Positions 7,826 through 27,446 of a stretch of 64,000 nucleotides of DNA are shown here, piece by piece. The notes under the pieces were generated by a model. That model ran no database searches. It was not told the DNA's origin and saw nothing but the letters and a program-made list of their open reading frames with translations. The stretch is from Polyangiales bacterium. GTDB lineage: Bacteria; Myxococcota_A; Polyangia; Polyangiales; Houyiibacteriaceae. How positions within the stretch are numbered: the first letter of the stretch is position 1; each line of letters begins with the position of its first letter. The DNA is taken from contig OZ245758.1 of assembly GCA_965227405.1 (NCBI GenBank), positions 1,385,693 through 1,449,692 of the forward strand, in the 5' to 3' direction. The translations under genes and the position numbers were made by a program.

Positions 7826-9430
7826 ATGGCGTCAAAACGCCGCAAGAAGAAAAAGAAGCCCGACACCCCCGCGTTACCGCCGCGGGTTCGGTGGGGGAAT
7901 CTGTTGTTGGCGTCGCTCGGCGGCGTGATGCAGTGCCTCGGCTTTGCAGGCTGGAGTTGGTGGCCCTTCGCACTCATCTGCTGGCTACCCATGTTCTGGA
8001 TTCTCGAAACCGAACCGAACATGACCGGCAAGCGAGCGTTTCGCCTGGGTCTCGCACACGGGTTCGTGGGCTACACCGGCGGGTACTACTGGTTGGTCGA
8101 CATGCTGGAGAATTTCTCCGGTTACGAGGGCATCCCCAACTGGTTCTTCGGCAGCGTGTTCTTCCTCTATCACGGCTGCCAACAGGCATTTATCTACGCG
8201 CTGTACCACCGCATCCATCGACGCGGTTGGCCCCGCATGCTCGCGGCCATTGCGGCGCTGCTCACGCTCGAGATCGCCTTCCCGGTCCTGTTCCCAGCGT
8301 TTCTTTCCACCGGGTTCCACAACGTTCCAATCTTCATTCAAACGGCAGACTTTGCCGGGCCCATGTTCGCGAGTGCGGTGGTGATGTCGATCAACGTCGC
8401 TCTCTACGAGATGTGGAAGTGGCGCAAAACACGCATCTTGCCCAAACGCGACCTGATGATTGCGATCGGCTCGCTCGTGTTCTCGCTCGGCTACGGCGCG
8501 TACCGGATGGCGAACATTGATGCGCGCGCCGAGGCCGCACCCACGCTTGAAGTGGGAACGGTGCAGGTCAACATGGGCATCTTCGAGAAGCGCGAAGAGC
8601 CTTTTGAAGGCCACCGACGTCACCTGCGTCAGAGCCAGTTGCTTGAGCGCAACCATCCCGACCTCGATCTGCTGGTGTGGCCCGAAAGCGCGTACACATT
8701 TTTCCTTCCCGAAAGCATGACCAACGTGAAGGAGCGCGTGCTCGGTCCTGTGTCGACACCCACCTTGTTTGGAGGCCTGACGCGTCGGCAAGGCGAGAGT
8801 CGAATGGAGGCGTTCAACACCGCGTTCCTGACCGACGCCGACGGCGAGATCGTCGGCACGTACGACAAGACCTATCTGCTGATGTTCGGCGAGTACCTGC
8901 CCTTTGGAGACACCTTCCCGGTGCTCTACGAGTACTCGCCCAACTCCGGTCGGTTCACTCCGGGCGACCATGTGCGTCCCTTGGTCTTGCCGCACCCCGA
9001 GCACGGCGACGTACGCATGAGCACGCTGGTTTGCTACGAAGATGTGTTGCCGCGGTTCACGCGAAGTGCGGTTCGAGAAGGCAATCCCCACCTTTTGGTG
9101 AACATCACCAACGACTCGTGGTTTGGGGACACCCAAGAACCGTGGATTCACCTGGCTCTCGCTAAGTTTCGAGCGATCGAGCACCACCGCGCGCTTGTGC
9201 GGTCGACCAACAGTGGAGTCAGCGCGTTCGTCGATCCTGTGGGCCGCGTGATCGACACCATCGGGGTGGAAGAGCAAGGCCAATCGACGGCGGAGCTACC
9301 CCTACTGGATGGTTGGACGCCCTACCAAACGCTTGGCGACTGGCCCGGCTGGGCGGGACTCGGTCTCGCGTTTTGGTTCGGATTTGTGGGGCGTCGTAAA
9401 GAAGACGAGAGCGCGCCCGCCGACGCCTAG
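7826..9430 (+). CDS. lnt: apolipoprotein N-acyltransferase
   Basis: N-terminal multi-TM region plus a CN-hydrolase domain with the E-K-C triad context (LLVWPESA; TYDKTYLLMFGEYLP; LVCYEDVLP) and LLVNITNDSWFG. Confidence 0.9.
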   Translation: MASKRRKKKKKPDTPALPPRVRWGNLLLASLGGVMQCLGFAGWSWWPFALICWLPMFWILETEPNMTGKRAFRLGLAHGFVGYTGGYYWLVDMLENFSGYEGIPNWFFGSVFFLYHGCQQAFIYALYHRIHRRGWPRMLAAIAALLTLEIAFPVLFPAFLSTGFHNVPIFIQTADFAGPMFASAVVMSINVALYEMWKWRKTRILPKRDLMIAIGSLVFSLGYGAYRMANIDARAEAAPTLEVGTVQVNMGIFEKREEPFEGHRRHLRQSQLLERNHPDLDLLVWPESAYTFFLPESMTNVKERVLGPVSTPTLFGGLTRRQGESRMEAFNTAFLTDADGEIVGTYDKTYLLMFGEYLPFGDTFPVLYEYSPNSGRFTPGDHVRPLVLPHPEHGDVRMSTLVCYEDVLPRFTRSAVREGNPHLLVNITNDSWFGDTQEPWIHLALAKFRAIEHHRALVRSTNSGVSAFVDPVGRVIDTIGVEEQGQSTAELPLLDGWTPYQTLGDWPGWAGLGLAFWFGFVGRRKEDESAPADA

Positions 9431-11012: not shown

Positions 11013-11554
11013 TCGTCTTGCTGCTGCTGTGGTCGTTGCCTGCCTATGCGGACGATGTGGACTCCGACGTGGAGGCACCTTCCGGACAGTCGATCGGACA
11101 ACCATTCACGGGTGAACGCGACGTACAGATGGAGATCTACGGCGGCGTCGGTTGGTACGGGCCGGGACTTAGCGTCGGTCTACGTCTGAACATTCCGCTG
11201 ATGGACAACGGGTTTGTCGACGAGATCAACAACGCGATCTTCGTCACCTTCGGGGCTGAGCTGTACTACGCGCGCTACACCGATAGCGGCCAGGATGAGC
11301 GCGGCATCGGTTTTGGTGTGCCCTTCGGGATGATGTGGGCGTTCTACTTCTCGGACGCGTGGTCCGCGTTTTTCGAAATCGGACTGAGCCTGTACTTCCC
11401 ACCCTCGTGGGTTGGCGGTGGCAGCTTCGTCGACGATGCCGGCGGCTGGGTCCTCGCTGGCGTGGGCGGACGTTGGCACTTCTCCGAACGCGGTGCACTG
11501 ACCGTCCGACTCGGAACGCCGTCGTCGAGCATCGGCTTGATGCTCAACTTCTGA
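11000..11554 (+). CDS. hypothetical secreted protein, probable small outer-membrane beta-barrel
   Basis: Signal peptide MRFVVVLLLLWSLPAYA. Alternating aromatic/Gly-rich beta-strand-like segments. C-terminal residue F. Resembles the ORF at 51138-51665. Confidence 0.5.
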   Translation: MRFVVVLLLLWSLPAYADDVDSDVEAPSGQSIGQPFTGERDVQMEIYGGVGWYGPGLSVGLRLNIPLMDNGFVDEINNAIFVTFGAELYYARYTDSGQDERGIGFGVPFGMMWAFYFSDAWSAFFEIGLSLYFPPSWVGGGSFVDDAGGWVLAGVGGRWHFSERGALTVRLGTPSSSIGLMLNF

Positions 11555-11576
11555 CTCTGTTGCTTGCTTTCGCGGC

Positions 11577-13421
11577 TCAGCCGACCGGATTCACGAGCAC
11601 TTGCGCGCCCTGCGAACCGGTCACCTCGGCAATGCCGGTGACCTTGGGACCGTCTGCGCTCTTGGACACGTGCACGATCACCTGAACCGCGCGTGCCACA
11701 AGCGTGGCTGAAGTCTCAGGCGAGTGGCCGGAGAGCGTCGCCAAGAAGACCAAGGGGAAACCGGGGTCCTGCGTAGGCGCGGAGTTTGCGCCAAGGAAGC
11801 CGCCACCACCGTGGGAAGCCAGCGCTGCGAGAACATCAAACGCCGAAGCGTCTGCGACACCATCGACGAAGAGGTGGTCCACGCGCATGCGCGCGGCTTG
11901 GAGCGCCACCTGACCCACCGACACGCCGTTCGTCCCACCGCTGAGGTGCATGACGTGCGGCAGATCCAGCGTTGCGGTCGCACCACGACTCACGGCTGCA
12001 ACGCGATCACTCGGGTCGAGCAAACTGGCTAGCGACGCGATCAGCTCAGACACCTCCGAACCTTGCGGTCCGACGACCGCGATCGTCTTGTTGTTGGCAA
12101 CAGCCGCGCGCAACACCTGTGCACCGTCGCTCGAGAGCACGCCTCGGGCCACGAACGCATCGATGTTGGGTCCACCGCCACGACGAATCTCAACGATCGG
12201 TCCACCGACAGCAATGGGAGGCAGCATCGCGCTGACCTGACCACCTTGCGGCAACACGCCCTGAAGCATCGCGCCCTTGGGCGACGTGGGACCACGCGAG
12301 CAAAGACGACGCGCGATCACGCTGAGCATCGCAGCCGATGAGAAGTTGGCTTCGGAAGGCACGAGTCCTGCGCCCTTGTCGACGAGAACTTTCGATGGAC
12401 CTTCGACGACGATCTCCTTGATCGACGAGTCGCCGAGCAACGCTTCGAACGCACCCAAGCCCACGGCTTCGCGAAGTGCCGCCGCAGCAAGGTTGGCGTC
12501 GTTGGCATCGACTGCGCCGCCCTTGCCGAGCTCACGCATCACCTCCGCGATTGCTTTCTTCGCCGCGGATTGGCGGGTTTGATCCTGCACGCCGAGCGCG
12601 CTTCCGTCCTCGAGTCCGGGGAACGCGCTCTTCAACGCACCCATGACCGCAGGCAATCCCGTCGGTCCAGGAGCCACGGCGGGCGCAGGCTGCGGTTGTG
12701 CAGGCGAAGGCGATGGCGCGGGTGCACCGCTTCCGACAGAAGGTCGCGGCGCACGCGTCGGCGGCTCAGGCTCACGATCAAGCTGGAACTGATCCTGCGC
12801 TGGCGTAGGTTGAGGTGCGGGCTGCGCTGGCACCGCGGTAGGAGCCGGCGCAGGTTGCGGCTGTGGCGCGGGTTGCGGCGCGGCTTGAGGCTGCGGCGCA
12901 GAAGGAGGCGGACCGATGGGCTGCGGCGCCGGTTGCGGAGCAGCTTGCGGCGGCGGTGCGGCTTGAGGCGGCGGCGCAGCTGCAGGAGGCGGTCCGATCG
13001 GTGCGGGCGCTGCAGGTGCAGGTGCAGAAACCGCAGGTGCAGGCGCAGAAGGAGCAGGCGGAGGACTCGAACGCAGAGGCGGCGGACCAGGCCGCGGCGG
13101 TGCAGCCGCAGCATCCGGGTACGCAGCAGCACCCAAGTCCTCGACGGTCAGAATGAAGTCGCCGATGTAAACCTTGTCACCCGGCTTCACGACGAGCGGC
13201 GAGGTGATCTTGCGTCCGTTGACGTAGGTGCCGTTCGTGCTCTTCAGGTCCACCACAATGAAGCGGCTATCCTTCAGAACGATCCGACTGTGACGCTTGG
13301 AGACGTTTCCCTTCGGGAGAATGATGTCGTTGCCTTGAACGCGGCCAATTGTGACCTCGCTCTTGTCAAACTCCATCCGTCGTTGGGCCCCGCCCTTTTC
13401 GGTGATCACCACTGCGAACAT
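11577..13421 (-). CDS. FHA-domain protein fused to a degenerate CpaF/TadA (VirB11-like) secretion-ATPase domain (predicted pseudo-ATPase), with Pro/Ala/Gln-rich linker
   Basis: N-terminal FHA: TIGRVQGNDIILPKGNVSKRHSRIVL...STNGTYVNG. The C-terminal ~330 aa align to CpaF-like ATPases (SIKEIVVEGPSKVLVDKGAG...; MLPPIAVGGPIVEIRR). The Walker A position reads VVGPQGSEVS instead of GxxGxGKT. The Walker B/Glu box reads HLFVDGVAD. The His box reads HGGGGFLGANSA. Confidence 0.8.
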   Translation of the reverse strand: MFAVVITEKGGAQRRMEFDKSEVTIGRVQGNDIILPKGNVSKRHSRIVLKDSRFIVVDLKSTNGTYVNGRKITSPLVVKPGDKVYIGDFILTVEDLGAAAYPDAAAAPPRPGPPPLRSSPPPAPSAPAPAVSAPAPAAPAPIGPPPAAAPPPQAAPPPQAAPQPAPQPIGPPPSAPQPQAAPQPAPQPQPAPAPTAVPAQPAPQPTPAQDQFQLDREPEPPTRAPRPSVGSGAPAPSPSPAQPQPAPAVAPGPTGLPAVMGALKSAFPGLEDGSALGVQDQTRQSAAKKAIAEVMRELGKGGAVDANDANLAAAALREAVGLGAFEALLGDSSIKEIVVEGPSKVLVDKGAGLVPSEANFSSAAMLSVIARRLCSRGPTSPKGAMLQGVLPQGGQVSAMLPPIAVGGPIVEIRRGGGPNIDAFVARGVLSSDGAQVLRAAVANNKTIAVVGPQGSEVSELIASLASLLDPSDRVAAVSRGATATLDLPHVMHLSGGTNGVSVGQVALQAARMRVDHLFVDGVADASAFDVLAALASHGGGGFLGANSAPTQDPGFPLVFLATLSGHSPETSATLVARAVQVIVHVSKSADGPKVTGIAEVTGSQGAQVLVNPVG

Positions 13422-13551
13422 GTTCGTCAGACCTCATGGCTCGGACGCCCGAGCGTGGGGAGCGATTGAACGATCTCAGTGAGGCTGTAGTCAAGCCATC
13501 GGCGCGAATTGACGGGAGAATTCTCGCTTCTTCGGAGTCTTTTCCAGGGGC

Positions 13552-16386
13552 TTACTCGACCAGCCGAAGCCCGGGCGGGAGGCTGTCGCCGAAAATTCGG
13601 CGTTCATCGGCCTCGCTCAGCACCTGAACCGAGCGAACCATCTCGACCCAGGTGTCTGGATGTCCTGCATGGGCCAGGCGATCGGCAACCTGGCCCCGTA
13701 GACCTTCGTCGAGATCCCGCTCTCGATCACCACTACACCGAGCGAGCAGAGTTGCGGCAAACGCGGCTGGTGCGGCATCGCGCCAATCGAACGTGAGGGC
13801 GAGTTCCAGCCACTGGACAGCCACGTGACGCGGCACCACCCGGTGTGCACTTCCGTAGAAAGGCACACGCGCGCCAAGCCGTCCCACAGCCCACCACGAC
13901 TGCACGTTCTCGTCGTGCTTGTCGAGACGCGTAACCAACCACCCACCAACCTGCGCCTTGCGATCAGGTTCCAGGTGTTCGAGTGCACCCGCGAGACGAA
14001 CCATGGCGTCGTACCCCTGCATCTTGGGACCTGCGGGACGCTTGCGCGGCTTCTTCGTCGGAGGGTGAAGGTAGTACTCGAGCTGCGCCATCAGCGAACT
14101 CTGACTCTTGGGTGTGAGTCCGCCTGCGATGCGGCGCCACATCGTCCAGAACTCCGACCAGTTCTGAGCCTCGGGCGCAAACTGTACGCCGCCCTTCATG
14201 ACCCCTTCGACGATCTGCTTGGTGCGCCACTCGTCCAGTGGATATCCAAACCCAGGTCGCAGCGTGTAGCCGACCAAGTTGAACCAGACGCGTTCGTGAT
14301 CTGCAGACCGTCGCCGACGCTTCATTCCGGCGTGCAGTGCACCAAAGAGTTCGCGCAGCAGAGGCGTTTGCCAACCGTCACGCGGTCCGAGCACCTTTTC
14401 GATGTCAGGCCGCAGTCGTTTCACGTCGCGTTGAGAGATGTCGTTTTTGCCTTTGCTCTTGCCGTAGACCAGCTTCACGCGATCGGTCGCTTCGGCAAAG
14501 CGCGGGTGCAACTGTGTGACGCGTTGAGCCGCAACAGCGTCTGCCGACTTGCCCCGCAGCTGGAGCTCCAACTTCCAGCGTTGCTGCGACTGTTCGGCGT
14601 GCACGCAACTCATCTCGAGCGTGCCCACTTCCGTGAGTGCGCTCGAAAGCGTCACGGGCACTTCTTTTTCGTCGGACGAGTCGCTGCTCGCATCGTCGAG
14701 AACCGCCGCGATCGGCGGAAGATCCCGATAGCGTTCCGCGTCTTCGACTTCGACGATTTCGCCGGGTCGCACATGCTTCACATCGCTGGTTGTGGCCACG
14801 AGGTGAAAGCGAACGGGGCGACCGAGGCGCAACGAGAACGTGCGATCTTTGAGCGGGATCTCTTCCCCTTCTTCGGAGCCGCGCGGAAGAATGCAAACAC
14901 CGCGTCGTTGTGAGGGCACGAGCGATTGACCGCGTGGTTTCTCGCCAGCGTCGACGATCAAATAGTAGCTGCGTGCCGATCCACCGCCGATGCGCAGACC
15001 CAATCCACGTCGAGCAAGACCGTACGCGACCGCGCCCTTCGCAACAGCTTGATCGGGGGCATCGTTGTCCAAGCGTCGGACTTCCGCACCACGCCACCCC
15101 GTCATGACCGAGCGCATACGTTCGCGAAGCAACGCGCTGTTGAACACACCACCGTTGAACAGGACAGCATCGGGAATGTCGCCTGCGATGCCTTCACCAC
15201 GTTCGTCTTGGGTTCCCAGAGCTTCGCGACACAAGTCGGTGTGACTCGCCAGAAACGCCGCGACATGTCGCGAGACTCCGGCATCGGCCACGTAGGGAAG
15301 TCCGAACTCCACGATGCCGCTTCTTCGCCGTTGGGGTGTGGCGTCGGCTCCGACTTCGGGAAAGAACCCTTCGAGCACCAGCTTGTGCACCGCGTCGCGT
15401 TTGACCGAAACCGATTGTGAGCCGCCAATGAGTTTGGATCCCGCGCCGAGAACTGTGACCCGGACTTCGTCGGGTGCGTCGGGTGCGAGCAGGCGTTCTT
15501 TGGCTTGACGACACTGTTGAACCAGCTGTGTGAACCGGGCTGCGCCCAAGTTCTTTCCGAGTTCTTGCTCTGCGGTTTTGGCGAGCGCGAGATCCATGTT
15601 GTCGCCGCCGAGCATCAAGTGATCGCCAACCGCGATGCGAGTGATGCGCGGACCGCTTTCGCGTAGTTCGATCTTGATCAGCGTGAGGTCGGTGGTACCG
15701 CCGCCAACATCGACCACGAGTGCGAGTCGAACGCTTCCGAGAGCGTGGTCGAGTTCGTCACGGTTGCGATCGAGCCACGCGTAGAATGCAGCTTGGGGTT
15801 CTTCGACCAGGCGGACTTTGAGCCCAGCGTCTTTGGCTGCGCGAAGCGTGAGACCTCGAGCCGCTTCGTCGAACGATGCAGGAACTGTCAGCACCACGTC
15901 TTGCGTGGACATCGGGTTGTCGGGGAAGCGTGCGTCCCATGCGGCGCGGACGTGCGCGAGGTAGGAGGCGGACGCGTCGACCGGCGACACCTTTTCGACT
16001 TCGTCGGGAGCGCCCCAGGGGAGGATGTTGGCCGTTCGATCGACCGCGCCGTGACTGAGCCAACTCTTGGCGGACGCCACCAGCCGCCCGGGTGTTTTGG
16101 TGCCCAGTTCGAGCGCGAGTTCACCGAGAACTGGCTGTCCTTCAGACGGCGCTGCCCATGGGAGCGCGAGCTGAGCGGGTGGGATTTCTCCGGGAGACGC
16201 GTGGTAGCGGACCGAAGGAAGCAGAGGTTTGGCCGCCACTTGGCCGGGCGCGATGAGCTGTTCGACCTCGAAGGATTGGATGTCGGGCGGCGCGTCAGGA
16301 GACGACGCCTTGGTGTCGGCGTAAGCGACCACGGTGTGGGTCGTGCCGAGATCGATGCCAACGAGGTAACGAGAGGCGACAGCCAT
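13552..16386 (-). CDS. atypical large Hsp70-family (DnaK-like actin-fold ATPase) protein with ~450-aa C-terminal extension
   Basis: Hsp70 motifs: VGIDLGTTHTVVAY, DVVLTVPASFDEAARGLT, LVEEPQAAFYAW, LVVDVGGGTTDLTLIKI. The C-terminal half has no recognized domain. Paralogous to the ORF at 21555-23366. Confidence 0.85.
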   Translation of the reverse strand: MAVASRYLVGIDLGTTHTVVAYADTKASSPDAPPDIQSFEVEQLIAPGQVAAKPLLPSVRYHASPGEIPPAQLALPWAAPSEGQPVLGELALELGTKTPGRLVASAKSWLSHGAVDRTANILPWGAPDEVEKVSPVDASASYLAHVRAAWDARFPDNPMSTQDVVLTVPASFDEAARGLTLRAAKDAGLKVRLVEEPQAAFYAWLDRNRDELDHALGSVRLALVVDVGGGTTDLTLIKIELRESGPRITRIAVGDHLMLGGDNMDLALAKTAEQELGKNLGAARFTQLVQQCRQAKERLLAPDAPDEVRVTVLGAGSKLIGGSQSVSVKRDAVHKLVLEGFFPEVGADATPQRRRSGIVEFGLPYVADAGVSRHVAAFLASHTDLCREALGTQDERGEGIAGDIPDAVLFNGGVFNSALLRERMRSVMTGWRGAEVRRLDNDAPDQAVAKGAVAYGLARRGLGLRIGGGSARSYYLIVDAGEKPRGQSLVPSQRRGVCILPRGSEEGEEIPLKDRTFSLRLGRPVRFHLVATTSDVKHVRPGEIVEVEDAERYRDLPPIAAVLDDASSDSSDEKEVPVTLSSALTEVGTLEMSCVHAEQSQQRWKLELQLRGKSADAVAAQRVTQLHPRFAEATDRVKLVYGKSKGKNDISQRDVKRLRPDIEKVLGPRDGWQTPLLRELFGALHAGMKRRRRSADHERVWFNLVGYTLRPGFGYPLDEWRTKQIVEGVMKGGVQFAPEAQNWSEFWTMWRRIAGGLTPKSQSSLMAQLEYYLHPPTKKPRKRPAGPKMQGYDAMVRLAGALEHLEPDRKAQVGGWLVTRLDKHDENVQSWWAVGRLGARVPFYGSAHRVVPRHVAVQWLELALTFDWRDAAPAAFAATLLARCSGDRERDLDEGLRGQVADRLAHAGHPDTWVEMVRSVQVLSEADERRIFGDSLPPGLRLVE

Positions 16387-16486
16387 AGAAGCCGCTTACT
16401 CCTGTTTTCCGGGGACAGCCATCAGGCGCTCTACACTAACCTCTTCGCCGTTTCGGAGGACGCCCGTTTGCAGGATGCAGCCCAGC

Positions 16487-16573
16487 GGCGGCTGATGGCT
16501 GCAGGACACCCAGGAGGCGGCTGATGGCTGCTGGACACCCATCAGGCGGCTGATGGCTGCAGGACACCCATCA
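16487..16573. repeat. three tandem 29-bp direct repeats (GGCGGCTGATGGCTGCAGGACACCCAKSA) in the intergenic region upstream of the large Hsp70 gene
   Basis: Copies sit at 16487-16515, 16516-16544 and 16545-16573 with 1-3 mismatches. A partial inverted copy (CAGCCATCAGGCG) lies at about 16413-16428. Confidence 0.9.
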
Positions 16574-16636
16574 AGCCCAAGCAGTCACTCAGGCGGGACC
16601 AGCCACCTCGAATATGACGGACGCGCCGTTTGGCAG

Positions 16637-16888
16637 CTATTCCTCTTCAGAAGACGGTGTATTCGGCGTCAACCCGGCTGACGCGGGGCCCTTCGCCAAA
16701 ACCTCACGCAGCAACTCATTGAGCTCTGCCAGGAGCTCGTTCTGTTTCTTGGCCGTTTTGACCTGTTGACGCATCAGCTTCATCGCAGTGTCTTGTTTCC
16801 GAGACAGGGTGCGGATGCGAAGCATCGCGAACGTTGCAACGAGCGCCAGGAGGATCGCCCCCACAGAAAGAATCGCCTGGTTCTCCAT
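16637..16888 (-). CDS. possible small membrane protein (one TM helix plus amphipathic coiled-coil tail)
   Basis: MLGAMENQAILSVGAILLALVATFAML followed by KLMRQQVKTAKKQNELLAELNELLREVL. The start overlaps the CrtI-like ORF start at a CCATGG palindrome. Existence uncertain. Confidence 0.3.
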   Translation of the reverse strand: MENQAILSVGAILLALVATFAMLRIRTLSRKQDTAMKLMRQQVKTAKKQNELLAELNELLREVLAKGPASAGLTPNTPSSEEE

Positions 16889-18497
16889 GGCGCCGAGCAT
16901 ACTTGAAGCGCCCCTGGGTTGCCTCCAGAGTTCCAGGACACCCATCTTGATCTCATCGAAAACACACACGTTCTTGCCAACGGGCCGACTGATCCGTCCT
17001 GAAGACCGGCGCTCGGTTGCGCCGAACGCGCCACATGCAGTTGTCATCGGTGCTGGGTTCGGAGGGCTCGCCGCAGCAATCCGACTCAGCGTACGTGGCT
17101 ACCGTGTGACGGTTGTCGATAGATTGAGTCAGCCGGGTGGACGCGCTCGTGTACATCGAATCGACGGTTACACGTTCGACGCGGGGCCAACCTTGGTCAC
17201 CGCTCCATTTTTGTTCGAAGAACTCTGGGCACTGTGTGGCGAAGACCTGCACACGAGTGTGGATCTCCGACCAACCGAACCCTTCTACCGGATTCGATTC
17301 GACGACGGCGAGAGCTTCGAATACAGCGGCGACCTTGAGCGCATGCGAGCCGAGATCTCTCGCATTTCGCCACGCGATCTGGCGGGCTACGACGCATTTC
17401 TCGAGAAGAGCCGGGAAATCTACGAGGTCGGTTTTGAGCGACTCGGCCACACACCCTTCGGTCGACTGACTGATATGGCGCGAGTCGCTCCGGCGATGAT
17501 CTCGCTGGACAGCCATCTTTCGGTGCACCAACTGGTCGCACGATACATCCGCAACGAAAAGTTGCGGCAGGTTCTGAGTTTTCACCCGCTTTTGGTCGGT
17601 GGGAATCCGTACCAAACGACCAGTATTTATACGTTGATTGCCTATCTTGAACGTCGATGGGGAGTTTGGTTTCCCATGGGCGGTACGGGGAAACTCGTCG
17701 ATGGGATGGTCGCGTTGTTGCGCCGTCGCGGCGTTCGATTTCTGCAGGACACCCATGTTTCCGAGGTCGTTATCGTCGATGGATCGGCAACGGGAATCCG
17801 TCTCGAAGATGGGTCTGTCATCGACTCCGACATCGTGGTCAGCAACGCAGACTCCGCATGGATGTACCGGCATATGGTTCCATCGCAGTGGCGCAAACGC
17901 TGGACCAATCATCGCATCGACAACGCTGCGTACTCGATGAGCCTATTCGTCTGGTACTTCGGAACCTCGCATCAGTACGAAGATGTTGCGCACCACACGA
18001 TCATCCTTGGGCCCCGGTATCGCGGTTTGCTCAACGATATTTTCAAGCATCAACGGCTTCCTGACGACTTTAGCCTGTATCTGCACCGGCCAACTGCGAC
18101 CGACGCTTCGATGGCGCCACGTGGCTGCGATGCCTTTTACGTGCTCGCACCAGTCCCGCACCTCGATGCGTCCGTCGACTGGAACCAAGCGCAAGAACAC
18201 TACAGGACACGCATCGAACGGCATCTTGAAGCAACCGTGCTGCCGCGGTTGCGCTCACGTCTCACAGTCAGCAAATGCTTGAACCCCATCGGGTTTCGAG
18301 ATGACTACGCGTCGCTGAAAGGCGCGGCATTCGGTTTGCAACCTCAGTTGCTCCAGAGCGCTTACTTCCGTCCTCACAACCAGAGTGAGGACATCCAGAA
18401 TCTGTACCTGGTCGGGGCAGGCACCCATCCGGGAGCAGGGCTTCCCGGAGTCCTCAGCACCGCGCGAGTCCTCGATTCGATCGTGCCCGATCCGTAG
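16887..18497 (+). CDS. phytoene desaturase-family FAD-dependent oxidoreductase (CrtI/CrtD-like)
   Basis: Rossmann dinucleotide-binding motif VVIGAGFGGLAAAIRL...DRLSQPGGRA. The C-terminus GAGTHPGAGLPGVLSTARV is typical of the CrtI family. The true start may be the TTG at 16974. The ORF is open from 16788. Confidence 0.8.
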   Translation: MAPSILEAPLGCLQSSRTPILISSKTHTFLPTGRLIRPEDRRSVAPNAPHAVVIGAGFGGLAAAIRLSVRGYRVTVVDRLSQPGGRARVHRIDGYTFDAGPTLVTAPFLFEELWALCGEDLHTSVDLRPTEPFYRIRFDDGESFEYSGDLERMRAEISRISPRDLAGYDAFLEKSREIYEVGFERLGHTPFGRLTDMARVAPAMISLDSHLSVHQLVARYIRNEKLRQVLSFHPLLVGGNPYQTTSIYTLIAYLERRWGVWFPMGGTGKLVDGMVALLRRRGVRFLQDTHVSEVVIVDGSATGIRLEDGSVIDSDIVVSNADSAWMYRHMVPSQWRKRWTNHRIDNAAYSMSLFVWYFGTSHQYEDVAHHTIILGPRYRGLLNDIFKHQRLPDDFSLYLHRPTATDASMAPRGCDAFYVLAPVPHLDASVDWNQAQEHYRTRIERHLEATVLPRLRSRLTVSKCLNPIGFRDDYASLKGAAFGLQPQLLQSAYFRPHNQSEDIQNLYLVGAGTHPGAGLPGVLSTARVLDSIVPDP

Positions 18498-18578
18498 GGA
18501 AGCTCGTTCCAAACTGGCGAGAGATGGGTGTCTTGTCATTTGCCCGCAACTGGGGTCGCGCGGTTCCGATAAAGGGGC

Positions 18579-19529
18579 ATGACTCGCGCACGCTCCGAAT
18601 CCTACGACCTCGATTCAACCCCTTTCTACCACTGCATTTCGAGATGCGTACGCCGCGCATGGCTTTGCGGCCGCGACCCGTACACAGGACAAGACTTCGA
18701 ACACAGGAAAGACTGGATCGAAGAGCGTCTCTTCTTTCTCGCGGAGATCTTTGCCATCCAACTTTTTGCGTACGCGGTCATGTCCAACCACCTCCATATC
18801 GTGGTGCGAGTCGATCGCGCGTTGGCTCTGTCCTGGACCGACGAGGAGGTGGTCGAGCGCTACACGAGACTCTTCAAAAACTCCAAAGCGCGTCTGGATC
18901 CGCTGCCGAGTCACGCACGCAAGTCGCTGATCGCGTTGTGGCGCGAACGCCTTCACGATCTGTCTTGGATGATGCGCACGCTCAACGAGCACATTGCTCG
19001 GCGCGCCAACAAAGAAGACAACTGCACCGGCCGCTTCTGGGAGGGTCGCTTCAAGTCTCAACCGCTTCTCGATGAAACTGCGGTGCTCACATGCATGGCA
19101 TACGTCGACCTCAACGTCGTTCGGGCGGGCGAGGTTGAGTCGCTCGACGAAGCAATGCACACCTCGATCACGCGGCGGTTGAAATCGGCTCCGAGTGCGC
19201 CGCGCGGCCTCGCACCGTTCGAGGATCAAACTGGGAAGTCAGACATTGCGGTGCCCATGCATTTCCGCGACTACGTCGAGGTTCTCGAGTGGACGGGCCG
19301 GTGCTCACGCGCGTATGGACCCGGTGCACGCTTGCGCGGAAAACCGCCACAGCTTCTCACACAGCACAGTCTTGATTCGTCGACTTGGCTCGACACCATG
19401 CAAAGCCACGGTCTCTCCAAGCTTACCGCGCTGGGATCGACCTCAGAGATTGCCTCGTTTGCGACAAAGAAAGGTCGCACGTGGATCCGAGGAGCGGGTC
19501 TCGCCCGTGCTCGGACCTACCCTCGGTGA
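18579..19529 (+). CDS. HUH-family Y1 tyrosine transposase-like protein (IS200/IS605 TnpA-related long form, COG1943-like)
   Basis: HuH motif SNHLHIVV and the catalytic-Tyr region MAYVDLNVVRAGEV (YxxxNxVRAG). Also TGRFWEGRF. About 316 aa, so longer than minimal TnpA. No obvious terminal hairpins identified. Confidence 0.65.
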   Translation: MTRARSESYDLDSTPFYHCISRCVRRAWLCGRDPYTGQDFEHRKDWIEERLFFLAEIFAIQLFAYAVMSNHLHIVVRVDRALALSWTDEEVVERYTRLFKNSKARLDPLPSHARKSLIALWRERLHDLSWMMRTLNEHIARRANKEDNCTGRFWEGRFKSQPLLDETAVLTCMAYVDLNVVRAGEVESLDEAMHTSITRRLKSAPSAPRGLAPFEDQTGKSDIAVPMHFRDYVEVLEWTGRCSRAYGPGARLRGKPPQLLTQHSLDSSTWLDTMQSHGLSKLTALGSTSEIASFATKKGRTWIRGAGLARARTYPR

Positions 19530-19552
19530 CAAACGGGCCCTATGCTTAAGTC

Positions 19553-20026: not shown

Positions 20027-20044
20027 GGACAGCCACAAAAACGG

Positions 20045-20719
20045 TCAGAAACCTCGACCGAGCGTCTCGATTCGCACGACCCGGCCATCTTCAAACGTCA
20101 CACGGCGCATGAAACGAAGCGGACCGAAGTTGTACACCCACGTTTCGACTTGAACGGCGCGTTGGGCGGTCTGCACGACCCCCTCTACAGGCGCAACCGT
20201 CACGCCTGTTTGAACAACACGCGAGTTTTGCTCAGTTGGCTCACCCCAAGTTGCCCGGACGCGGGATGGTGAGTGTCCCAATCTCACGTCGTACGCTCGT
20301 GTGCCCAGTTGATCAGGCGGAAAGCCGCGACCCAACGTTTCAACGGTGTTCACCACCCCATCCTGAAACTCAATGCGGACCATGAAACGCTGGGGTCCAA
20401 AGTTGAGTGTCCACGTCTCGATGGTCGAGGTCACACTCCTGCTGAAGATGGCACCGAACTGCGCCTGATGGATTGTTCGCTGGTCGACGCGGACAGCCAC
20501 ATCAACGGGATCTCCGCAGCGCGCACGCACCTCTGCTTGGGTGTCTCCTCGATCGATCAAGTGGGTTCCGCATCGAAGAGCGCTCGCCTCGGCTTGAAAA
20601 ATGAACGAGGCCGCAAGCGCTGCCAGCGCTGCGGCGAGTTTGATGGGTGTCCTTGGGCTAAGCCGCATCATTCCTGAACGATGAACTCCCTCTCGCCTCG
20701 GGACAACGAGGGGATCCAC
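20045..20719 (-). CDS. secreted protein with two tandem ~85-aa repeats (DUF2845-like)
   Basis: Signal peptide AALAALAASFIFQAEA. Repeat units end IETWTLNFGPQRFMVRIEFQDGVVNTVETLGRGF and VETWVYNFGPLRFMRRVTFEDGRVVRIETLGRGF. Confidence 0.6.
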   Translation of the reverse strand: MDPLVVPRREGVHRSGMMRLSPRTPIKLAAALAALAASFIFQAEASALRCGTHLIDRGDTQAEVRARCGDPVDVAVRVDQRTIHQAQFGAIFSRSVTSTIETWTLNFGPQRFMVRIEFQDGVVNTVETLGRGFPPDQLGTRAYDVRLGHSPSRVRATWGEPTEQNSRVVQTGVTVAPVEGVVQTAQRAVQVETWVYNFGPLRFMRRVTFEDGRVVRIETLGRGF

Positions 20720-20723
20720 CTGT

Positions 20724-21551
20724 TCACGTCATGGCCAACCGCATTTCATCGGCGCTCTGATACCGCTCGGTCGGATTCTTGCGAATCGCCTTCATGACCA
20801 CGCGATCCACGCGTGGATCCAACGACGGTCGGACAGTCGAGGGTGGAGGCGGAAAATCCTCCAAGATGGTGCGAAACACCTCTTCCACAGGTCCCTCAAC
20901 GGGCGGAAACGCACGCTGCCCAGTCAGCAGTTCGTAGGCCAAAACGCCGGCGCCATACACATCCGTCCTCGCATCGACGGGATCTGCAAGGATCTGCTCG
21001 GGAGACATATAACTGGGTGTCCCGAGAGCTTCCTGCGGCTTGGTGAGCGTGGTGGTCGGGGTCAGTCGGTCCAGATCCTTGCTCAAACCAAAGTCGATCA
21101 CCTTCACAACACCTTCACTTGTGATGAAGACGTTTGATGGCTTGAGATCCCGATGAACCACGCCCCCGTCGTGGGCGGCCTGCACACCACGAAGCACCGA
21201 AACGATGATCTTGCGTGTCCTGGGAACCAACATCGGCCCTTCTCGCAAGGTGGCCAATAGGGTGTCCCCCACCAGCAGCTCCATCACGAGAAACGGGGTC
21301 TGGTCCACCACGCCTGCATCGTAGGTTTCGACGACGTTCGGGTGCTTCACCTGCGCGGCCAACCGAGCCTCACGGACAAAACGCCGATGCAGGGTGTCTG
21401 TGTTCAGGTGTTCAGCCAGAACCTTCACAGCCACCGGTCGGCCAAGATGGGTGTCCCAGGCTCGATGAACCACCGACATCCCGCCTTTGGCGAGGACCTT
21501 TTCCAGCCGGTAACGGTCAAGCAAGACTTCGCCTGCGCTAAACCGGCTCAC
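20724..21551 (-). CDS. Hanks-type Ser/Thr protein kinase, catalytic domain only (275 aa)
   Basis: LAKGGMSVVHRA, AVKVL, HRDLKPSNVF, DFGLSK, GTPSYMSPEQ. Four bp downstream of the Hsp70-like gene, so probably an operon. Confidence 0.85.
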   Translation of the reverse strand: MSRFSAGEVLLDRYRLEKVLAKGGMSVVHRAWDTHLGRPVAVKVLAEHLNTDTLHRRFVREARLAAQVKHPNVVETYDAGVVDQTPFLVMELLVGDTLLATLREGPMLVPRTRKIIVSVLRGVQAAHDGGVVHRDLKPSNVFITSEGVVKVIDFGLSKDLDRLTPTTTLTKPQEALGTPSYMSPEQILADPVDARTDVYGAGVLAYELLTGQRAFPPVEGPVEEVFRTILEDFPPPPSTVRPSLDPRVDRVVMKAIRKNPTERYQSADEMRLAMT

Positions 21552-21554
21552 GCT

Positions 21555-23366
21555 TCACTCTCGTACGTCGAGTTCGACTTTCCATACGTGCTCACCCCCA
21601 CGACTGAGGGCTTCGAGCACAAGAGTACCTAACTCCGACACTCGACCGCGAAGACGAACGGGAACCACTTCACCAGGCGAGTTCCCCTCCGTTGGCAATG
21701 TGGCCTCAATCTGCCCCAACTCCACGAGTTCGTCGTCGTTCCACCGCTCGAGCAACGCGCCTGTGTCGTCGTCCCTTCGCACGGACGAACCAAAGAATCG
21801 AAACCGCACGGGCTCCCCAACGACCAAACCCAGTTCCTGCGGCGGTGCTTGCGAGGCACTGCCCTCTTCCAACCCAAAGGGTGCAACACACAGCGCGTGA
21901 ATCGGTGGCTCGATCCCCGGAACGGCGGGAGCTGCTGTCTCCACACCCACATAAAACGCCTGCGCCATTCCTCCACGAATGCGCACTCCGCCACCCTGTC
22001 GAACGTACCCGTAATACGCCGCACCACGCGCCACGGCACCATCCAGATCAGCGCCCTCAAGCACGCGTGCAGCCGGTGCGCCATCGCTTTCCAACCACTT
22101 TGTGATCAACGCCTCCACACGCTTTGCGATCACCGGTGCCTTGAACACACCACCGTTGAACAGGATCGCAGTCGGATGCAGAAACGCGGCGTCTGGTGAC
22201 ACATCAAACAGGTCCGCGGTTGCATTCACCTGTCGGCTCAAGAACGCAGCGAGGTGACGCGTGATCGCCGCATCCTGCGCGTACGGAAGCCCCAACTGGG
22301 TCAACGCACTTCGCGCACGCGTCTTCGGCTTCGAGTCCACGCCCACATCCGGGAAGAAACCCTCCAACACAACGGCTTCCACATCTGCGCGCGTCAACTC
22401 CGTGCGCAACGAACCACCGATCAACTTGCTGCCTCGGCTGGGCACCACAATCGGAACGCTGTCCGCCTTCCCGGCCAACAAGATCTCTTTCGCGCTTCGG
22501 CAGCTCTGCGTGATCGCGCGTACCTGCCAGTCATCGAGCTTCTTGCCCTCGGCTTCGAGCTTCGCTTTCACGGTGTAGCCCAAGGCGAGATCCATGTTGT
22601 CGCCGCCGAGCAAAATGTGGTCGCCCACGGCAACCCGTTCCAACTGCAGCGCACCCTCACTCTCGTGCACCGCAATCAGCGAGAGGTCGGTGGTTCCACC
22701 ACCCACATCAACCACAAGAATCACGTCGCCGACGTTCAGCTTGTCGCGCCACTCACCTCGGGTCTGTTGAATCCACGCGTAGAGCGCAGCTTGGGGCTCT
22801 TCGAGAAGCGTCAGGTTCGCGTACCCAGCTTTTTGGGCAGCCTCCGCCGTCAGTTCGCGCGCCGCGGGGTCGAACGACGCGGGAACCGTCAGCACGACCT
22901 CTTGATCCGCAAAGGGTTCCCCGGAATTCGCATGGTCCCAAGCCGCTTTGAGGTGCGCGAGGTACTGCACCGAAGCATCCAACGGGCTTAGCCGCGTGAC
23001 GTCGTCCGGTGCATCTGTCGGTAGGATCGGACCACGACGGTCGACCGCCGTATGACCCAGCCAGGACTTCGCGCTCGCAACCAAACGAATGGGTGTCTTG
23101 GCGCCAAGCACTCGCGCCAACTCGCCCACGACGTACGAGGGTGTCGCGTTCCACGGCAAGCTCGATGCACCACGGGCGAGTTCCGTGTCGTGTGGAAGAT
23201 AGAGAAAGCTTGGCAGCAACGTGCGCCGCTCCACTTCCGCTGGAGCGATCGCTTGATCGATTCCAAACGGTTGAAGCGCGACCTCTTCGCCTTCACTCAG
23301 ATCCAAATCCAACGCAGACAACGCACAGTGCGTCGTTCCAAGGTCGACACCGAGTACGAACGTCAC
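21555..23366 (-). CDS. Hsp70-family (DnaK-like) ATPase-fold protein, paralog of 13552-16386
   Basis: VLGVDLGTTHCALS, QEVVLTVPASFDPAARELT, LLEEPQAALYAW, ILVVDVGGGTTDLSLIAV. The start is taken at GTG 23366 (V47 of the longer ORF), which overlaps the upstream gene. Confidence 0.8.
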   Translation of the reverse strand: MTFVLGVDLGTTHCALSALDLDLSEGEEVALQPFGIDQAIAPAEVERRTLLPSFLYLPHDTELARGASSLPWNATPSYVVGELARVLGAKTPIRLVASAKSWLGHTAVDRRGPILPTDAPDDVTRLSPLDASVQYLAHLKAAWDHANSGEPFADQEVVLTVPASFDPAARELTAEAAQKAGYANLTLLEEPQAALYAWIQQTRGEWRDKLNVGDVILVVDVGGGTTDLSLIAVHESEGALQLERVAVGDHILLGGDNMDLALGYTVKAKLEAEGKKLDDWQVRAITQSCRSAKEILLAGKADSVPIVVPSRGSKLIGGSLRTELTRADVEAVVLEGFFPDVGVDSKPKTRARSALTQLGLPYAQDAAITRHLAAFLSRQVNATADLFDVSPDAAFLHPTAILFNGGVFKAPVIAKRVEALITKWLESDGAPAARVLEGADLDGAVARGAAYYGYVRQGGGVRIRGGMAQAFYVGVETAAPAVPGIEPPIHALCVAPFGLEEGSASQAPPQELGLVVGEPVRFRFFGSSVRRDDDTGALLERWNDDELVELGQIEATLPTEGNSPGEVVPVRLRGRVSELGTLVLEALSRGGEHVWKVELDVRE

Positions 23367-23379
23367 AACTGCACCGCGA

Positions 23380-23955
23380 TCAAAGCTCGACCTCAGCGGG
23401 CGCGACCACCGACAAGTCGTGCCCCGCAGCAACTTTCGGCAAGCGCACCTCCGCAATCTTCCAACCGCGATGTTGCAACGTTCCCTTGAACGGCGGCTCG
23501 CCAACCACGTTTCCGGTCACGCGAACCTCGGTCGCGTCGAATCCCTTCGGGAGCTCCACCGACGTTCCCTCTTCCTCAGACCGCACGGGTGTAACGTCAA
23601 AGTGCTCGGCCAGCGCTTTCTTGCACCCTTCGTGCACGACGCGTGCAGCAGCGCCAATGTCGGAGTCGGAAAACGCAGACACGTCTTCTTCCAAAAAGTC
23701 GATGAACCGACCTTCGCGTTGCAAGAGACCAAGCAGTTGAAGCGCAGCATCGGGTGTCGCTTCCACGACGGGAGGCGGTTCGGGTTCAGGCTCTGGCTCG
23801 GGCTCAGGGGCCGGCAATGCAGGCTCGCCCTGCATGAGCTGTCTCACAGAGGCACCCAGGTCCGCTGAGAACAGAACGCGTAGTGCGAGGCCAAAACGCG
23901 CGAAGAAGGAAGGCTTCCGTTCCAATGCTCGTAACTCCTGGCGCGGCTGTAGCAC
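23380..23955 (-). CDS. DUF2760-like protein (Hsp70-associated small protein)
   Basis: About 190 aa with an N-terminal hydrophobic FFARFGLALRVLF, a PEPEPEPEPEPP linker, and a conserved C-terminal domain (LQREGRFIDFLEEDV...GNVVGEPPFKGTLQHRGWK). Sits directly upstream of the Hsp70-like gene. The family assignment is from memory of the DUF2760 context. Confidence 0.5.
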   Translation of the reverse strand: MLQPRQELRALERKPSFFARFGLALRVLFSADLGASVRQLMQGEPALPAPEPEPEPEPEPPPVVEATPDAALQLLGLLQREGRFIDFLEEDVSAFSDSDIGAAARVVHEGCKKALAEHFDVTPVRSEEEGTSVELPKGFDATEVRVTGNVVGEPPFKGTLQHRGWKIAEVRLPKVAAGHDLSVVAPAEVEL

Positions 23956-24796: not shown

Positions 24797-26458
24797 GTGA
24801 CGATGGATTCTGCCCAAGAGCTCGACCCGAAGGTCGGCATGATGTTGCAGGACCGCTATCGCGTCGTGCGCAAGCTCGGCGAGGGCGGAATGGGCGCGGT
24901 CTACGAAGGCGAGCACGTGCTCATCAAGAAGCGCGTCGCGATCAAGTGTTTGCACCCGCAGTTCGCGAAGAACCCCGAAGTTGTCGCTCGCTTCCACCGC
25001 GAAGCACACGCCGCCACGAGCATTGGCCACGAGAACATCATCGAGGTCACGGACATGGGTCGTTTCGACGACGGCACTGTGTTCATGGTTCTCGAATTTC
25101 TCGAGGGTCGCGATTGGAGCGACGACATTGAGAGTCACGGTGCACAACCTCTCGGTCGTGTGGTTCGGATCATGTCGCAAGTCTGCGACGCGCTGGATGC
25201 CGCCCACTCGAAAGGAATCGTTCACCGCGATCTCAAACCGGAGAACATCTATCTAATTTCACGAGGTGGAAACTCGGACTTCGTGAAGGTGCTCGACTTC
25301 GGCATCTCGAAGTTCAAAGACCCCAACGGGCCAAACAAGTCGATGACCCAAACGGGCACCACGCTTGGCACGCCCTACTACATGTCCCCGGAACAAGCGC
25401 AGGGACGCAAAGACGTCGACGCGCGCGCGGACATCTACTCACTCGGAGTCATTCTCTTTCAAGCACTGACGGGGCAGTACCCGTTCGACGACGATTCGTA
25501 CCCGATGCTTGTGTTGAAGATCTGCACGGAGCCCGCTCCTTTGGCGCGCACGTTTCGTCCCGATCTGCCCGAGGAAGTCGAAGCGATCATCGCGCGTTTG
25601 CTCAGCAAGGATCCAAACGAGCGGTTTCAAGACTGTGGCAGCCTCAAAGCAGCGCTCGCGCCCTTTGCAGAGGCCGATGCAGCACCGGTTGTCGCGGATG
25701 CCCCTTCGACGAAAGGCGCGCAATCGTCGGTTCTCGGCAAAGCCGCTTCCGGTGTTCGCCCGCGCGATCAAGAAGGATTTCCGAGCCAGCCGTACGACCA
25801 GAGTGCCTTCACTCCGCCGACCAAGAGCCGTCTCCCACTGATCGTGGGTGGTGCACTGATTCTTCTCCTCGGAGCGGGTGCTGCCATCGCCGTCGGATCG
25901 GGTGCGTTCTCGAGTGACCCCGAACCAGTCGTCCCTCCAAGGGTGCTTCCGCAACTGCCGACACAGCCAACGACCATGGCGGAAGAGCGGGTCGCGGTGA
26001 ACATCACGACGCTCGACGAAGCGGGTCAACCTCTCGCTGCAGACCTTTTTCTCGACGGGTCACCGATTCGGAACCCGTTTCAGGGCCAGCTTCCTCGACG
26101 CCTGTTTCGCGTCGAAGCGCGCAAGGATGGGTACACAAGCGTGATCCAGGACATGAACCTGGAGTTCGACGCCGGTGGCGAACTCACGCTGCGGATGGAG
26201 CGTGGTTCGGGCACGGACGACCGTCGAAGCTCGATGCGAACGGCACGAATGACGTCGATGTCCTCCATGCAGGCGACCACAACGATGGAGACGCCCACCA
26301 CGATGGAGGCAGCGCCAACAATGCGTGAGCGGCCGCAACAGACGGTCACGGTGACGGAGCCTCCCCCAGTCATGGAACCTGCGATGCAGGAGGCCCCCAT
26401 GACCTCCGAGCCGGCGACGATGATGGATTCGATCATCCGGCTCAGCGGCATGATCTGA
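24797..26458 (+). CDS. Hanks-type Ser/Thr protein kinase with TM helix and C-terminal PEGA-like domain
   Basis: LGEGGMGAVYEG, VAIKCL, HRDLKPENIYL, DFGISKF, GTPYYMSPEQ. TM is LPLIVGGALILLLGAGAAIAV. PEGA-like segment FLDGSPIRNPF...RVEARKDGY. Confidence 0.9.
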   Translation: MTMDSAQELDPKVGMMLQDRYRVVRKLGEGGMGAVYEGEHVLIKKRVAIKCLHPQFAKNPEVVARFHREAHAATSIGHENIIEVTDMGRFDDGTVFMVLEFLEGRDWSDDIESHGAQPLGRVVRIMSQVCDALDAAHSKGIVHRDLKPENIYLISRGGNSDFVKVLDFGISKFKDPNGPNKSMTQTGTTLGTPYYMSPEQAQGRKDVDARADIYSLGVILFQALTGQYPFDDDSYPMLVLKICTEPAPLARTFRPDLPEEVEAIIARLLSKDPNERFQDCGSLKAALAPFAEADAAPVVADAPSTKGAQSSVLGKAASGVRPRDQEGFPSQPYDQSAFTPPTKSRLPLIVGGALILLLGAGAAIAVGSGAFSSDPEPVVPPRVLPQLPTQPTTMAEERVAVNITTLDEAGQPLAADLFLDGSPIRNPFQGQLPRRLFRVEARKDGYTSVIQDMNLEFDAGGELTLRMERGSGTDDRRSSMRTARMTSMSSMQATTTMETPTTMEAAPTMRERPQQTVTVTEPPPVMEPAMQEAPMTSEPATMMDSIIRLSGMI

Positions 26459-26477: not shown

Positions 26478-27446
26478 ATGGCACGTGGATGGTGGGTGAT
26501 CCTCCTCTTGCTGGCGTCCTCGGCGGTTGCTCAACCGCCCGCAGAGACGCCTGCAGAGACTAGCGAAGAGCAGCCTGAAGAAGAGGTGGTCCCACCGCAG
26601 GACCCGCCTCAATTGGTCGAAGCACGTGAGCGCATTGCGCGAGCGGAAACGCTGTTTGATTCGGAGAGCTACGACGCGGCGCTCGCCGAGTTCCAGCGCG
26701 CACTCGAGTTGCTTGAGGGCCACGAGATGCGCTTCTTCGTCCTCTTCAATATCGGGCGTTGCCAGGAAAAGCTGTTTCGATACTCGGAAGCCATGGCGAG
26801 CTACCGCGGGTTCCTCGACCAAGGGGGTGCAGACACCGAGTACGCGCCGCAGGTCACCGCGAAGATCGATCTGCTTGAAGGCTTGCTCGGAACCGTTCGC
26901 GTGTCGGTGAACATCCAGGGGTACGAGCTCTGGGTGGATGACCGCATGATCGGCACCGACGAAACCGAGATTCTCCTTCCCGGCGGATCGCACGTCGTGG
27001 AGGTTCGTGCGGAGGGCTACGTCCAAGCGCAGCAGCAGGTCGATGTTGTCGCGCGCGACGAGTCGCAGCTCACGTTTGAGATGGAGGAGCTCGCCGAAGA
27101 GTTTGAAGGACTGCATCCGGGACTCTTCTGGACGGGTGTGGGCGTCACGGTGGTCGCGCTCGCCGGTGGAATCGCGTTTGGTGCTCAGGCGCTCAGCCGA
27201 AGCAACGACGTCGATTCACGCGATCCGTCCATCGCGACGAGCGCGGAAGTCGACGACATCAAGAGTTCTGCCCGAAACGCTGACATCCTGTTTGGCGTGG
27301 CGGCATTGGCTGCGACCACCACCGTCATCTTTGCCGTGTTTACCAACTTCGGCGGCGATAGCAGCGACGATGACGAAGCGAGTATTCGGATCCAACCTGC
27401 CGCCGGGCCCGGTGGTGCAGGCCTCAACGTTCAGGGGTCGTTCTGA
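26478..27446 (+). CDS. secreted TPR-like plus PEGA-domain protein with C-terminal TM anchor
   Basis: Signal peptide. TPR-like region YDAALAEFQRALELLEGH...RCQEKLFRYSEAMASY. PEGA-like segment VSVNIQGYELWVDDRMIGT...VRAEGY. TM is LFWTGVGVTVVALAGGIAFGA. Starts 20 bp after the kinase stop. Confidence 0.6.
   Translation: MARGWWVILLLLASSAVAQPPAETPAETSEEQPEEEVVPPQDPPQLVEARERIARAETLFDSESYDAALAEFQRALELLEGHEMRFFVLFNIGRCQEKLFRYSEAMASYRGFLDQGGADTEYAPQVTAKIDLLEGLLGTVRVSVNIQGYELWVDDRMIGTDETEILLPGGSHVVEVRAEGYVQAQQQVDVVARDESQLTFEMEELAEEFEGLHPGLFWTGVGVTVVALAGGIAFGAQALSRSNDVDSRDPSIATSAEVDDIKSSARNADILFGVAALAATTTVIFAVFTNFGGDSSDDDEASIRIQPAAGPGGAGLNVQGSF

Follow-up and report, generated by a model that had tools for sequence, protein, structure and literature searches.

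An Hsp70 homologue of 944 amino acids (aa), here named Hsp70L, was analysed in a 64,000-nucleotide (nt) stretch of the genome of a Polyangiales bacterium (assembly GCA_965227405.1, contig OZ245758.1, positions 1,385,693 to 1,449,692; the whole stretch is referred to as the window). Gene order and conservation across genomes indicate that Hsp70L (13552..16386, minus strand) is the long subunit of a conserved bacterial module, DUF2760/Hsp70S/Hsp70L, in which Hsp70S is a short Hsp70 paralog without a helical lid. As a family member the protein is ordinary: it belongs to the DUF3731 Hsp70s, which are catalogued and widespread but uncharacterised. What is new with respect to characterised Hsp70 systems is the exchange of the lid for a predicted ARM/HEAT-like solenoid, the pairing with a lidless paralog, and the DUF2760 partner. 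Taken together, the data make it likely that the module is a dedicated two-Hsp70 chaperone system, to which Ser/Thr phospho-signalling has been added in the lineage of the window.

The module was defined from synteny as the genes of DUF2760, Hsp70S, and Hsp70L standing side by side in this order on one strand, using 80 genome loci whose open reading frames (ORFs) were compared with the proteins of the window. The results showed that nearly all loci from Beta- and Gammaproteobacteria and Acidobacteriota, and several from Polyangiales, have an Hsp70S gene of ~615 aa immediately 5′ of Hsp70L, and that its stop codon often overlaps the Hsp70L start. The gene immediately before Hsp70S encodes, in at least 46 loci, a protein of ~190 aa that matches Pfam DUF2760 (E 8e-52). 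When over-extended ORFs were corrected, the trio was intact in about 52 of the 66 loci with enough sequence, and all 14 exceptions fell in the Sandaracinaceae-like clade nearest the window. The deposited annotation of a Comamonadaceae replicon shows the identical three-gene set. All three module genes are also present in the window, with adjacency lost: Hsp70L lies ~5 kb from the DUF2760–Hsp70S pair, which the preliminary description had not linked to it. The Hsp70S of the window is 62–66% identical to the gene that most other loci have immediately 5′ of Hsp70L. Identity between Myxococcota and Burkholderiales reaches 52–58% for Hsp70L and 62–66% for Hsp70S, implying strong constraint on both proteins.

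The 944-aa Hsp70L ORF of the preliminary description was confirmed: it opens at an ATG, its product begins MAVASRYLVGIDLGTTH, and a 100% identical protein is on record in NCBI/ENA, on a contig of 9.07 Mb. The closest relatives, at 58–75% identity, are labelled ‘Hsp70 family protein’ and come from Sandaracinaceae, Polyangiales, and other Myxococcota; at least 8000 homologues and at least 576 genome loci were found. The C-terminal half had been described as unannotatable and orphan, a view that the domain search overturned. Pfam PF12531 (DUF3731, ‘DNA-K related protein’) matched aa 694–942 (13561..14307, minus strand) over model positions 1–248 of 248, with an E value of 7.2e-96 and a score of 321.3 bits (cut-off 25). 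With the Pfam HSP70 domain (PF00012) N-terminal to DUF3731, Hsp70L has the order and length of a fusion family of 900–980 aa. When aa 480–944 alone were searched against 1.84 billion cluster representatives, 1911 matches were obtained at E ≤ 1e-3, of which 533 had E ≤ 1e-30. The query was nearly always matched end to end, at about aa 480–940 of proteins of 900–980 aa, which shows the C-terminal half to be a conserved, family-specific module fused to an Hsp70 ATPase. The family comprises ~1,900 clusters at 50% identity, with carriers in Burkholderia, Cupriavidus, Caballeronia, Nitrosomonas, Competibacter, and many Myxococcota. Members of unusual length contained no additional Pfam domains, hence no informative fusions.

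Hsp70S (21555..23366, minus strand) has a probable GTG start at 23366, giving 603 aa; the longest ORF opens at a TTG at 23504. It is 42% identical to aa 7–611 of Hsp70L over 605 aa, that is, over the full length of Hsp70S, whereas the preliminary description had allowed the C-terminal half just a short stretch in common with this paralog. As Hsp70S aligns through aa 611, the region found in the long form alone comprises aa ~612–944, about 330 aa instead of the ~450 aa first proposed. Hsp70S stops right past the beta-sandwich of the substrate-binding domain (SBD-beta), which makes it a lidless Hsp70.

The nucleotide-binding domain (NBD) of Hsp70L (aa 1–462; 15001..16386, minus strand) was examined with an alignment of 90 family sequences (A2) and a profile built from it, which was searched against PDB. 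D12, G14, T15, K107, E195/E196, D226, G228–G230, T231, and D233 were invariant, and the profile, which spans Hsc70 residues 6–379, paired the invariant residues with the phosphate-1 motif of DnaK, K70, E171, and the phosphate-2 motif DLGGGTFD. The complete set of N-terminal Hsp70 motifs noted earlier is thus present in Hsp70L and invariant across the 90 members, and with this catalytic set and its alignment to DnaK and Hsc70 the ATPase looks intact. R177 is also conserved in the family alignment; by the profile alignment we take it to be the counterpart of DnaK R167, which contacts J-domains. No J-domain was found by tblastn in the 64-kb window, in line with the earlier statement that dnaJ is not adjacent; grpE, included in the same statement, was not searched for. 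DnaK works with DnaJ and GrpE, the genes of which are often close by, and Hsp70L may still make use of the housekeeping DnaJ. No isc genes were noticed among the annotated neighbours of Hsp70L.

Comparison with family models places Hsp70L outside every named bacterial Hsp70 subfamily. The NCBIfam DnaK, HscA, and YegD models gave 20–85 bits overall against cut-offs of 331–1019: 52–53.5 bits for DnaK (TIGR02350/PRK00290; cut-offs 648–822), 85 bits for HscA (620–708), and 20.2 bits for YegD (NF008673; 331). The earlier view of Hsp70L as a non-canonical Hsp70, not of the DnaK/HscA type, is therefore well founded. In PDB, the A2 profile matched NBDs only and no substrate-binding domain (SBD), even though full-length DnaK chains were among the targets. 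Since the sequence profile is blind to the SBD, the C-terminal half was compared by fold.

An AlphaFold2 model of aa 460–944 (predicted local distance difference test, pLDDT, 88.8; predicted template modelling score, pTM, 0.72) showed an all-beta part at aa ~473–609, a disordered linker, an all-alpha part at aa ~630–932, and a short terminal strand. A separate model of aa 462–618 (pLDDT 87.9, pTM 0.82) was searched alone with Foldseek. The result showed that the top 50 matches were Hsp70 SBDs throughout, including HscA with an IscU peptide, with E values of 1.5e-3 to 1.7e-2, template modelling (TM) scores of 0.4–0.5, and 9–10% identity. On these models, the predicted architecture of Hsp70L is an NBD, a strongly diverged SBD-beta (aa ~470–611; 14554..14979, minus strand) that is common to Hsp70S, a flexible linker, and an ARM/HEAT-like alpha-solenoid (aa ~630–932; 13591..14499, minus strand) in the position of the helical lid. 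Regarding a known SBD and lid in the C-terminal region, then, an SBD-beta-like fold is predicted to be present and the helical lid to be replaced.

The family signature motif RPGFGYPLDEWR (aa 710–721; 14225..14259, minus strand) contains the invariant residues R710, P711, G712, G714, and D718; in A2, R752 is likewise invariant and W750 and R751 nearly so. The RPG and WRR motifs, which the Pfam description of PF12531 gives as conserved, are thus both found in Hsp70L. Nine arginines of the solenoid (R678, R710, R752, R691, R721, R751, R836, R840, and R883) are invariant or near-invariant in A2, and such a set of conserved arginines would suit the binding of an acidic partner. The C-terminal tail FGDSLPPGLRLVE (13555..13590, minus strand; family consensus FGExLPxGLxL) has G933, L936, P937, G939, and L940 invariant or nearly so in A2 and forms a short beta-strand at model residues 481–483. 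As SBD-beta is the sole sheet available in the model, we infer that the tail docks there.

The third component is encoded in the window at 23380..23955 on the minus strand (Pfam PF10816, E 1e-55), and its true start is probably downstream of 23955. Alignment of DUF2760 orthologues (A4; window copy 23383..23955, minus strand) showed a hydrophobic or amphipathic, Arg-flanked N-terminal segment, PSFFARxxLAFGxFFRxL, followed by a Pro/Ala-rich linker and a globular domain of ~125 aa with an invariant AEVEL carboxy-terminus. The terminal elements look like candidate docking peptides or an amphipathic membrane helix. A search of PDB with the DUF2760 profile returned no solved relative.

In the window, DUF2760 and Hsp70S are part of a four-gene block (20045..23955, minus strand) in which they are followed by a Ser/Thr protein kinase and a DUF2845 protein, with gaps of 13, 3, and 4 nt. 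The kinase (20724..21551, minus strand; Pfam Pkinase E 3e-46) consists of the kinase domain only and begins 3 nt past the Hsp70S stop; DUF2845 (20045..20719, minus strand; Pfam E 3.6e-36) is the last gene of the putative operon and is followed by a terminator-like hairpin at 20042–20060 on the same strand. A promoter and terminator scan of 11000–24500 gave nothing beyond shuffled expectation. Two related loci, L002 and L006, match the window in having DUF2760 and Hsp70S followed by a Ser/Thr kinase. By gene order, the ancestral trio has been split in the Sandaracinaceae-like clade, where the kinase and DUF2845 now follow the DUF2760–Hsp70S pair and Hsp70L retains an FHA gene downstream, a neighbour peculiar to Polyangia-type Myxococcota.

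Between this block and Hsp70L lie genes on the opposite (plus) strand, among them those of a CrtI-family desaturase and a weak IS200-like ORF. The desaturase, a phytoene desaturase gene divergent from Hsp70L (16788..18497, plus strand; TIGR02734 E 6e-176), also lies between the two Hsp70 genes in L002 and L006, suggesting that the split is old in the clade. The IS200-like ORF (18579..19529, plus strand; 316 aa) gave a marginal match to a Y1 transposase (E 7e-5; 23.4 bits, cut-off 23) and may have been left behind when the module was rearranged. On the other side of Hsp70L, an apolipoprotein N-acyltransferase gene (lnt; LNT_N and CN_hydrolase domains; 7826..9430, plus strand) occupies a matching relative position in L002 and L006. 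Within 30 kb there are two more Ser/Thr kinases of the Hanks type, with 473 and 553 aa (909..2330, minus strand; 24797..26458, plus strand), and a TPR/PEGA protein (26478..27446, plus strand); the additional kinases fit a kinase-rich myxobacterial genome.

The gene that follows Hsp70L (11577..13421, minus strand) starts 130 bp past the Hsp70L stop, in the same orientation, as the preliminary description had stated. Its product consists of an FHA domain (Pfam E 6e-18) and, past a Pro/Ala-rich linker, a TadA/T2SSE-like domain. The latter scored 19.1 bits with T2SSE (Pfam cut-off 24.9), and TIGR03819 matched at E 5.5e-35, under its cut-off. The linker, at aa ~95–290, is a low-complexity stretch of ~200 aa rich in Pro, Ala, and Gln, with APQPQ-like repeats, that joins the two domains. 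Neither the lysine of Walker A (GxxGxGK[ST]) nor the catalytic Glu, the acidic residue expected in the Walker B/Asp-box region, is present in any of the 14 full-length copies aligned (13 orthologues and that of the window), and the TadA/T2SSE-like domain is a conserved pseudo-ATPase.

The preliminary description had proposed that Hsp70L and this neighbour form a chaperone with a phospho-reader scaffold. In its strongest form, the proposal is that the two genes are a functional unit, a non-canonical chaperone with a phosphothreonine-reading scaffold derived from Tad or the type II secretion system (T2SS), which works independently of Hsp70S. We regard this as possible but doubtful. The two genes share a strand, and the 130-bp gap contains no terminator-like site; the FHA gene lies 3′ of Hsp70L on the same strand in 16 loci besides the window, all of them from Myxococcota (median gap ~147 bp), even where Hsp70S has moved away; and conservation of the degenerate ATPase motifs suggests a maintained scaffold role. 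The two genes are thus recurrent neighbours in Myxococcota. This is not so in the 47 loci with at least 2.5 kb of downstream sequence from which the FHA gene is missing; these are mostly proteobacterial, and the gene is missing from all proteobacterial and acidobacterial loci as well as from the Myxococcota loci L008, L021, L029, and L053. Moreover, the trio is intact in 5 of the 16 FHA-bearing loci, and in L018, L030, L031, and L038 the FHA gene trails an intact trio, which argues that it joined the module ahead of the split and does not stand in for it. The Hsp70L of the window also retains all family-invariant residues. Given that the FHA gene is confined to Myxococcota and that DUF2760 and Hsp70S are near-universal partners, the recurrent FHA scaffold is best seen as a lineage-specific add-on to a core made up with those two proteins.

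A second alternative is that Hsp70L mainly regulates Hsp70S, in the manner of Hsp110 or HspBP1, with its NBD and/or its solenoid driving nucleotide exchange and Hsp70S being the working chaperone; this seems unlikely to us. In the two-Hsp70 chaperone module that we favour, both paralogs would act. Two co-conserved, catalytically competent paralogs with a small partner most likely form one specialised clamp, and Hsp70L and Hsp70S together may thus constitute a dedicated, ATP-driven peptide clamp with a narrow client set, not a general folding machine. The solenoid would be an adaptor built into Hsp70L, or a surface onto which Hsp70S, DUF2760, or a client docks, and, by analogy with the ARM-repeat exchange factor HspBP1, it could regulate the nucleotide cycle of the partner. 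DUF2760 would be a dedicated co-factor of the module or its client. In the lineage of the window, activity or localisation may be tied to Ser/Thr phosphorylation, with the kinase beside Hsp70S writing and the FHA protein beside Hsp70L reading; this link is drawn from the 3-nt spacing of the kinase from Hsp70S, the 130-bp spacing of the FHA gene from Hsp70L, and the persistence of the latter pairing in 16 loci.

Several observations weigh against the favoured module. The likeness of SBD-beta to known SBDs is moderate at the TM scores and identities given above, implying that peptide binding may be lost. In the window, the two Hsp70 genes belong to different transcription units that lie 5 kb from each other, so the proteins may be functionally independent in this lineage, and a shared transcript of Hsp70L and the FHA gene is putative. 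A heat-shock promoter signal was looked for before the trio in 55 loci and not found; sigma-32, sigma-54, and sigma-70 motifs showed no enrichment upstream of DUF2760. Fold matches of the solenoid were to generic ARM/HEAT proteins, with HspBP1 ranked 42nd among them, so that the likeness to this exchange factor is not specific. No experiment or publication on the DUF3731 Hsp70 family was found, so that the functional steps, namely the heterodimer, the client, and nucleotide exchange, are inference throughout.

A more far-reaching version of the two-Hsp70 module, which we put forward as a speculation with the odds against it, is an unrecognised, widespread bacterial machine in which the lidless and long paralogs would form a heterodimer, the solenoid would be its adaptor or exchange factor, and DUF2760 would be a co-factor that acts independently of J-proteins. 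Recognition of DUF2760 would go through the conserved terminal peptides, AEVEL-COOH on DUF2760 and LPxGLxL on Hsp70L, and in Polyangia the machine would be placed under Ser/Thr kinase and FHA control, with a link to a Tad/T2SS-like pseudo-ATPase scaffold.

A role of the module in phage defence or conflict, like that of some candidate defence systems that use Hsp70-like ATPases, is very improbable: Hsp70-containing conflict systems have been described (PMC7159879) but require GTPases or tubulin, neither of which is found here; the PADLOC match of the candidate model PDC-M61B is weak (E 4.8e-4 and 3e-5), lies in the NBD region only, and covers just 81 NBD residues of Hsp70L; the resemblance of the kinase adjoining Hsp70S to the PD-T4-6 models of PADLOC is generic Hanks-kinase similarity in a gene confined to the clade of the window; the family occurs in 11 of 72,556 plasmids, mostly Burkholderia-type megareplicons; a family-specific DNA pattern of the signature motif, which matches 66 of 81 family loci and one site in the window, had 0 matches in 2.9 million viral contigs; and sequence conservation across phyla is very high. 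The GTPase/tubulin/HSP70 systems were also considered as a counterpart of the module and set aside, their components being different (PMC7159879). Hundreds of IMG/VR contigs, including giant-virus metagenome-assembled genomes, encode generic Hsp70-NBD proteins that are 22–35% identical to the query NBD; the DUF3731 region was found in none of these proteins.

Bacterial Hsp70 biology rests almost wholly on DnaK, HscA, and HscC. The DUF3731 family is large and very strongly conserved, and it always brings together two Hsp70 paralogs and a small DUF2760 protein. Bacteria may have a pair of the Hsp70/Hsp110 kind, and the role of a replaced lid is open to chaperone study. The SBD-beta and solenoid assignments and the fixed three-gene module make these ideas testable, and there are genetically tractable carriers, such as Cupriavidus necator, Burkholderia, and Caballeronia. 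The window itself is of more modest interest, as a rearranged version of the locus decorated with a kinase and an FHA gene.

In the library searched, no paper names DUF3731, PF12531, or DUF2760, and a paper on DnaK duplication does not treat the family. Among possible members of the family, ‘DnaK-related protein’ genes of Vibrio cholerae (VC1373–1375) appear only in expression lists, as repressed in biofilm, and a 65-kDa ‘Hsp70 family protein’ of Burkholderia pseudomallei is mentioned. StkA, SglK, and MXAN_5323 of Myxococcus xanthus are comparable with Hsp70L as myxobacterial Hsp70 paralogs with regulatory and not housekeeping roles. MXAN_5323 is a heat-inducible Hsp70 of 925 aa in which only the NBD is annotated; cells deleted for it showed lower sporulation and lower oxidative resistance (PMC8265645). 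This protein may belong to the DUF3731 family. The M. xanthus stk locus was considered as a counterpart of the module, with StkA and StkB as a pair of DnaK homologues, and was rejected: the operon encodes StkA (540 aa), StkB (141 aa), which is SCP2-like, and StkC (89 aa), and is a different one (PMC4319316).

Compared with the rest of the DUF3731 family, the Hsp70L of the window has the same full-model match, the same NBD-to-DUF3731 order, and the same DUF2760 and short-Hsp70 partners in the genome; it differs in that ~5 kb separate the two halves of the trio, which have both acquired a neighbour for Ser/Thr signalling, the kinase in one case and the FHA protein in the other. With DnaK, HscA, and HscC, Hsp70L shares the actin-fold NBD with the full catalytic set and the SBD-beta sandwich that follows. 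However, those proteins have a helical lid where Hsp70L is predicted to have an ARM/HEAT solenoid of ~300 aa, the SBD of Hsp70L is undetectable by sequence, its NCBIfam scores are far under the cut-offs, and a hydrophobic interdomain linker of the VLLLD type is not evident. HspBP1, Fes1, and Sil1 are free-standing proteins, whereas the solenoid of Hsp70L is fused to an Hsp70 and matches them no better than it does dozens of unrelated ARM/HEAT proteins. The eukaryotic-type arrangement of Hsp110 and Grp170 resembles the module in that a longer Hsp70 with an enlarged C-terminal helical region is coupled with a partner of regular length and both retain nucleotide-binding residues; Hsp70L and Hsp70S differ from it in being bacterial and operon-encoded, in having a predicted solenoid in place of an extended SBD-alpha that embraces the NBD, and in the lidless form of the short partner.

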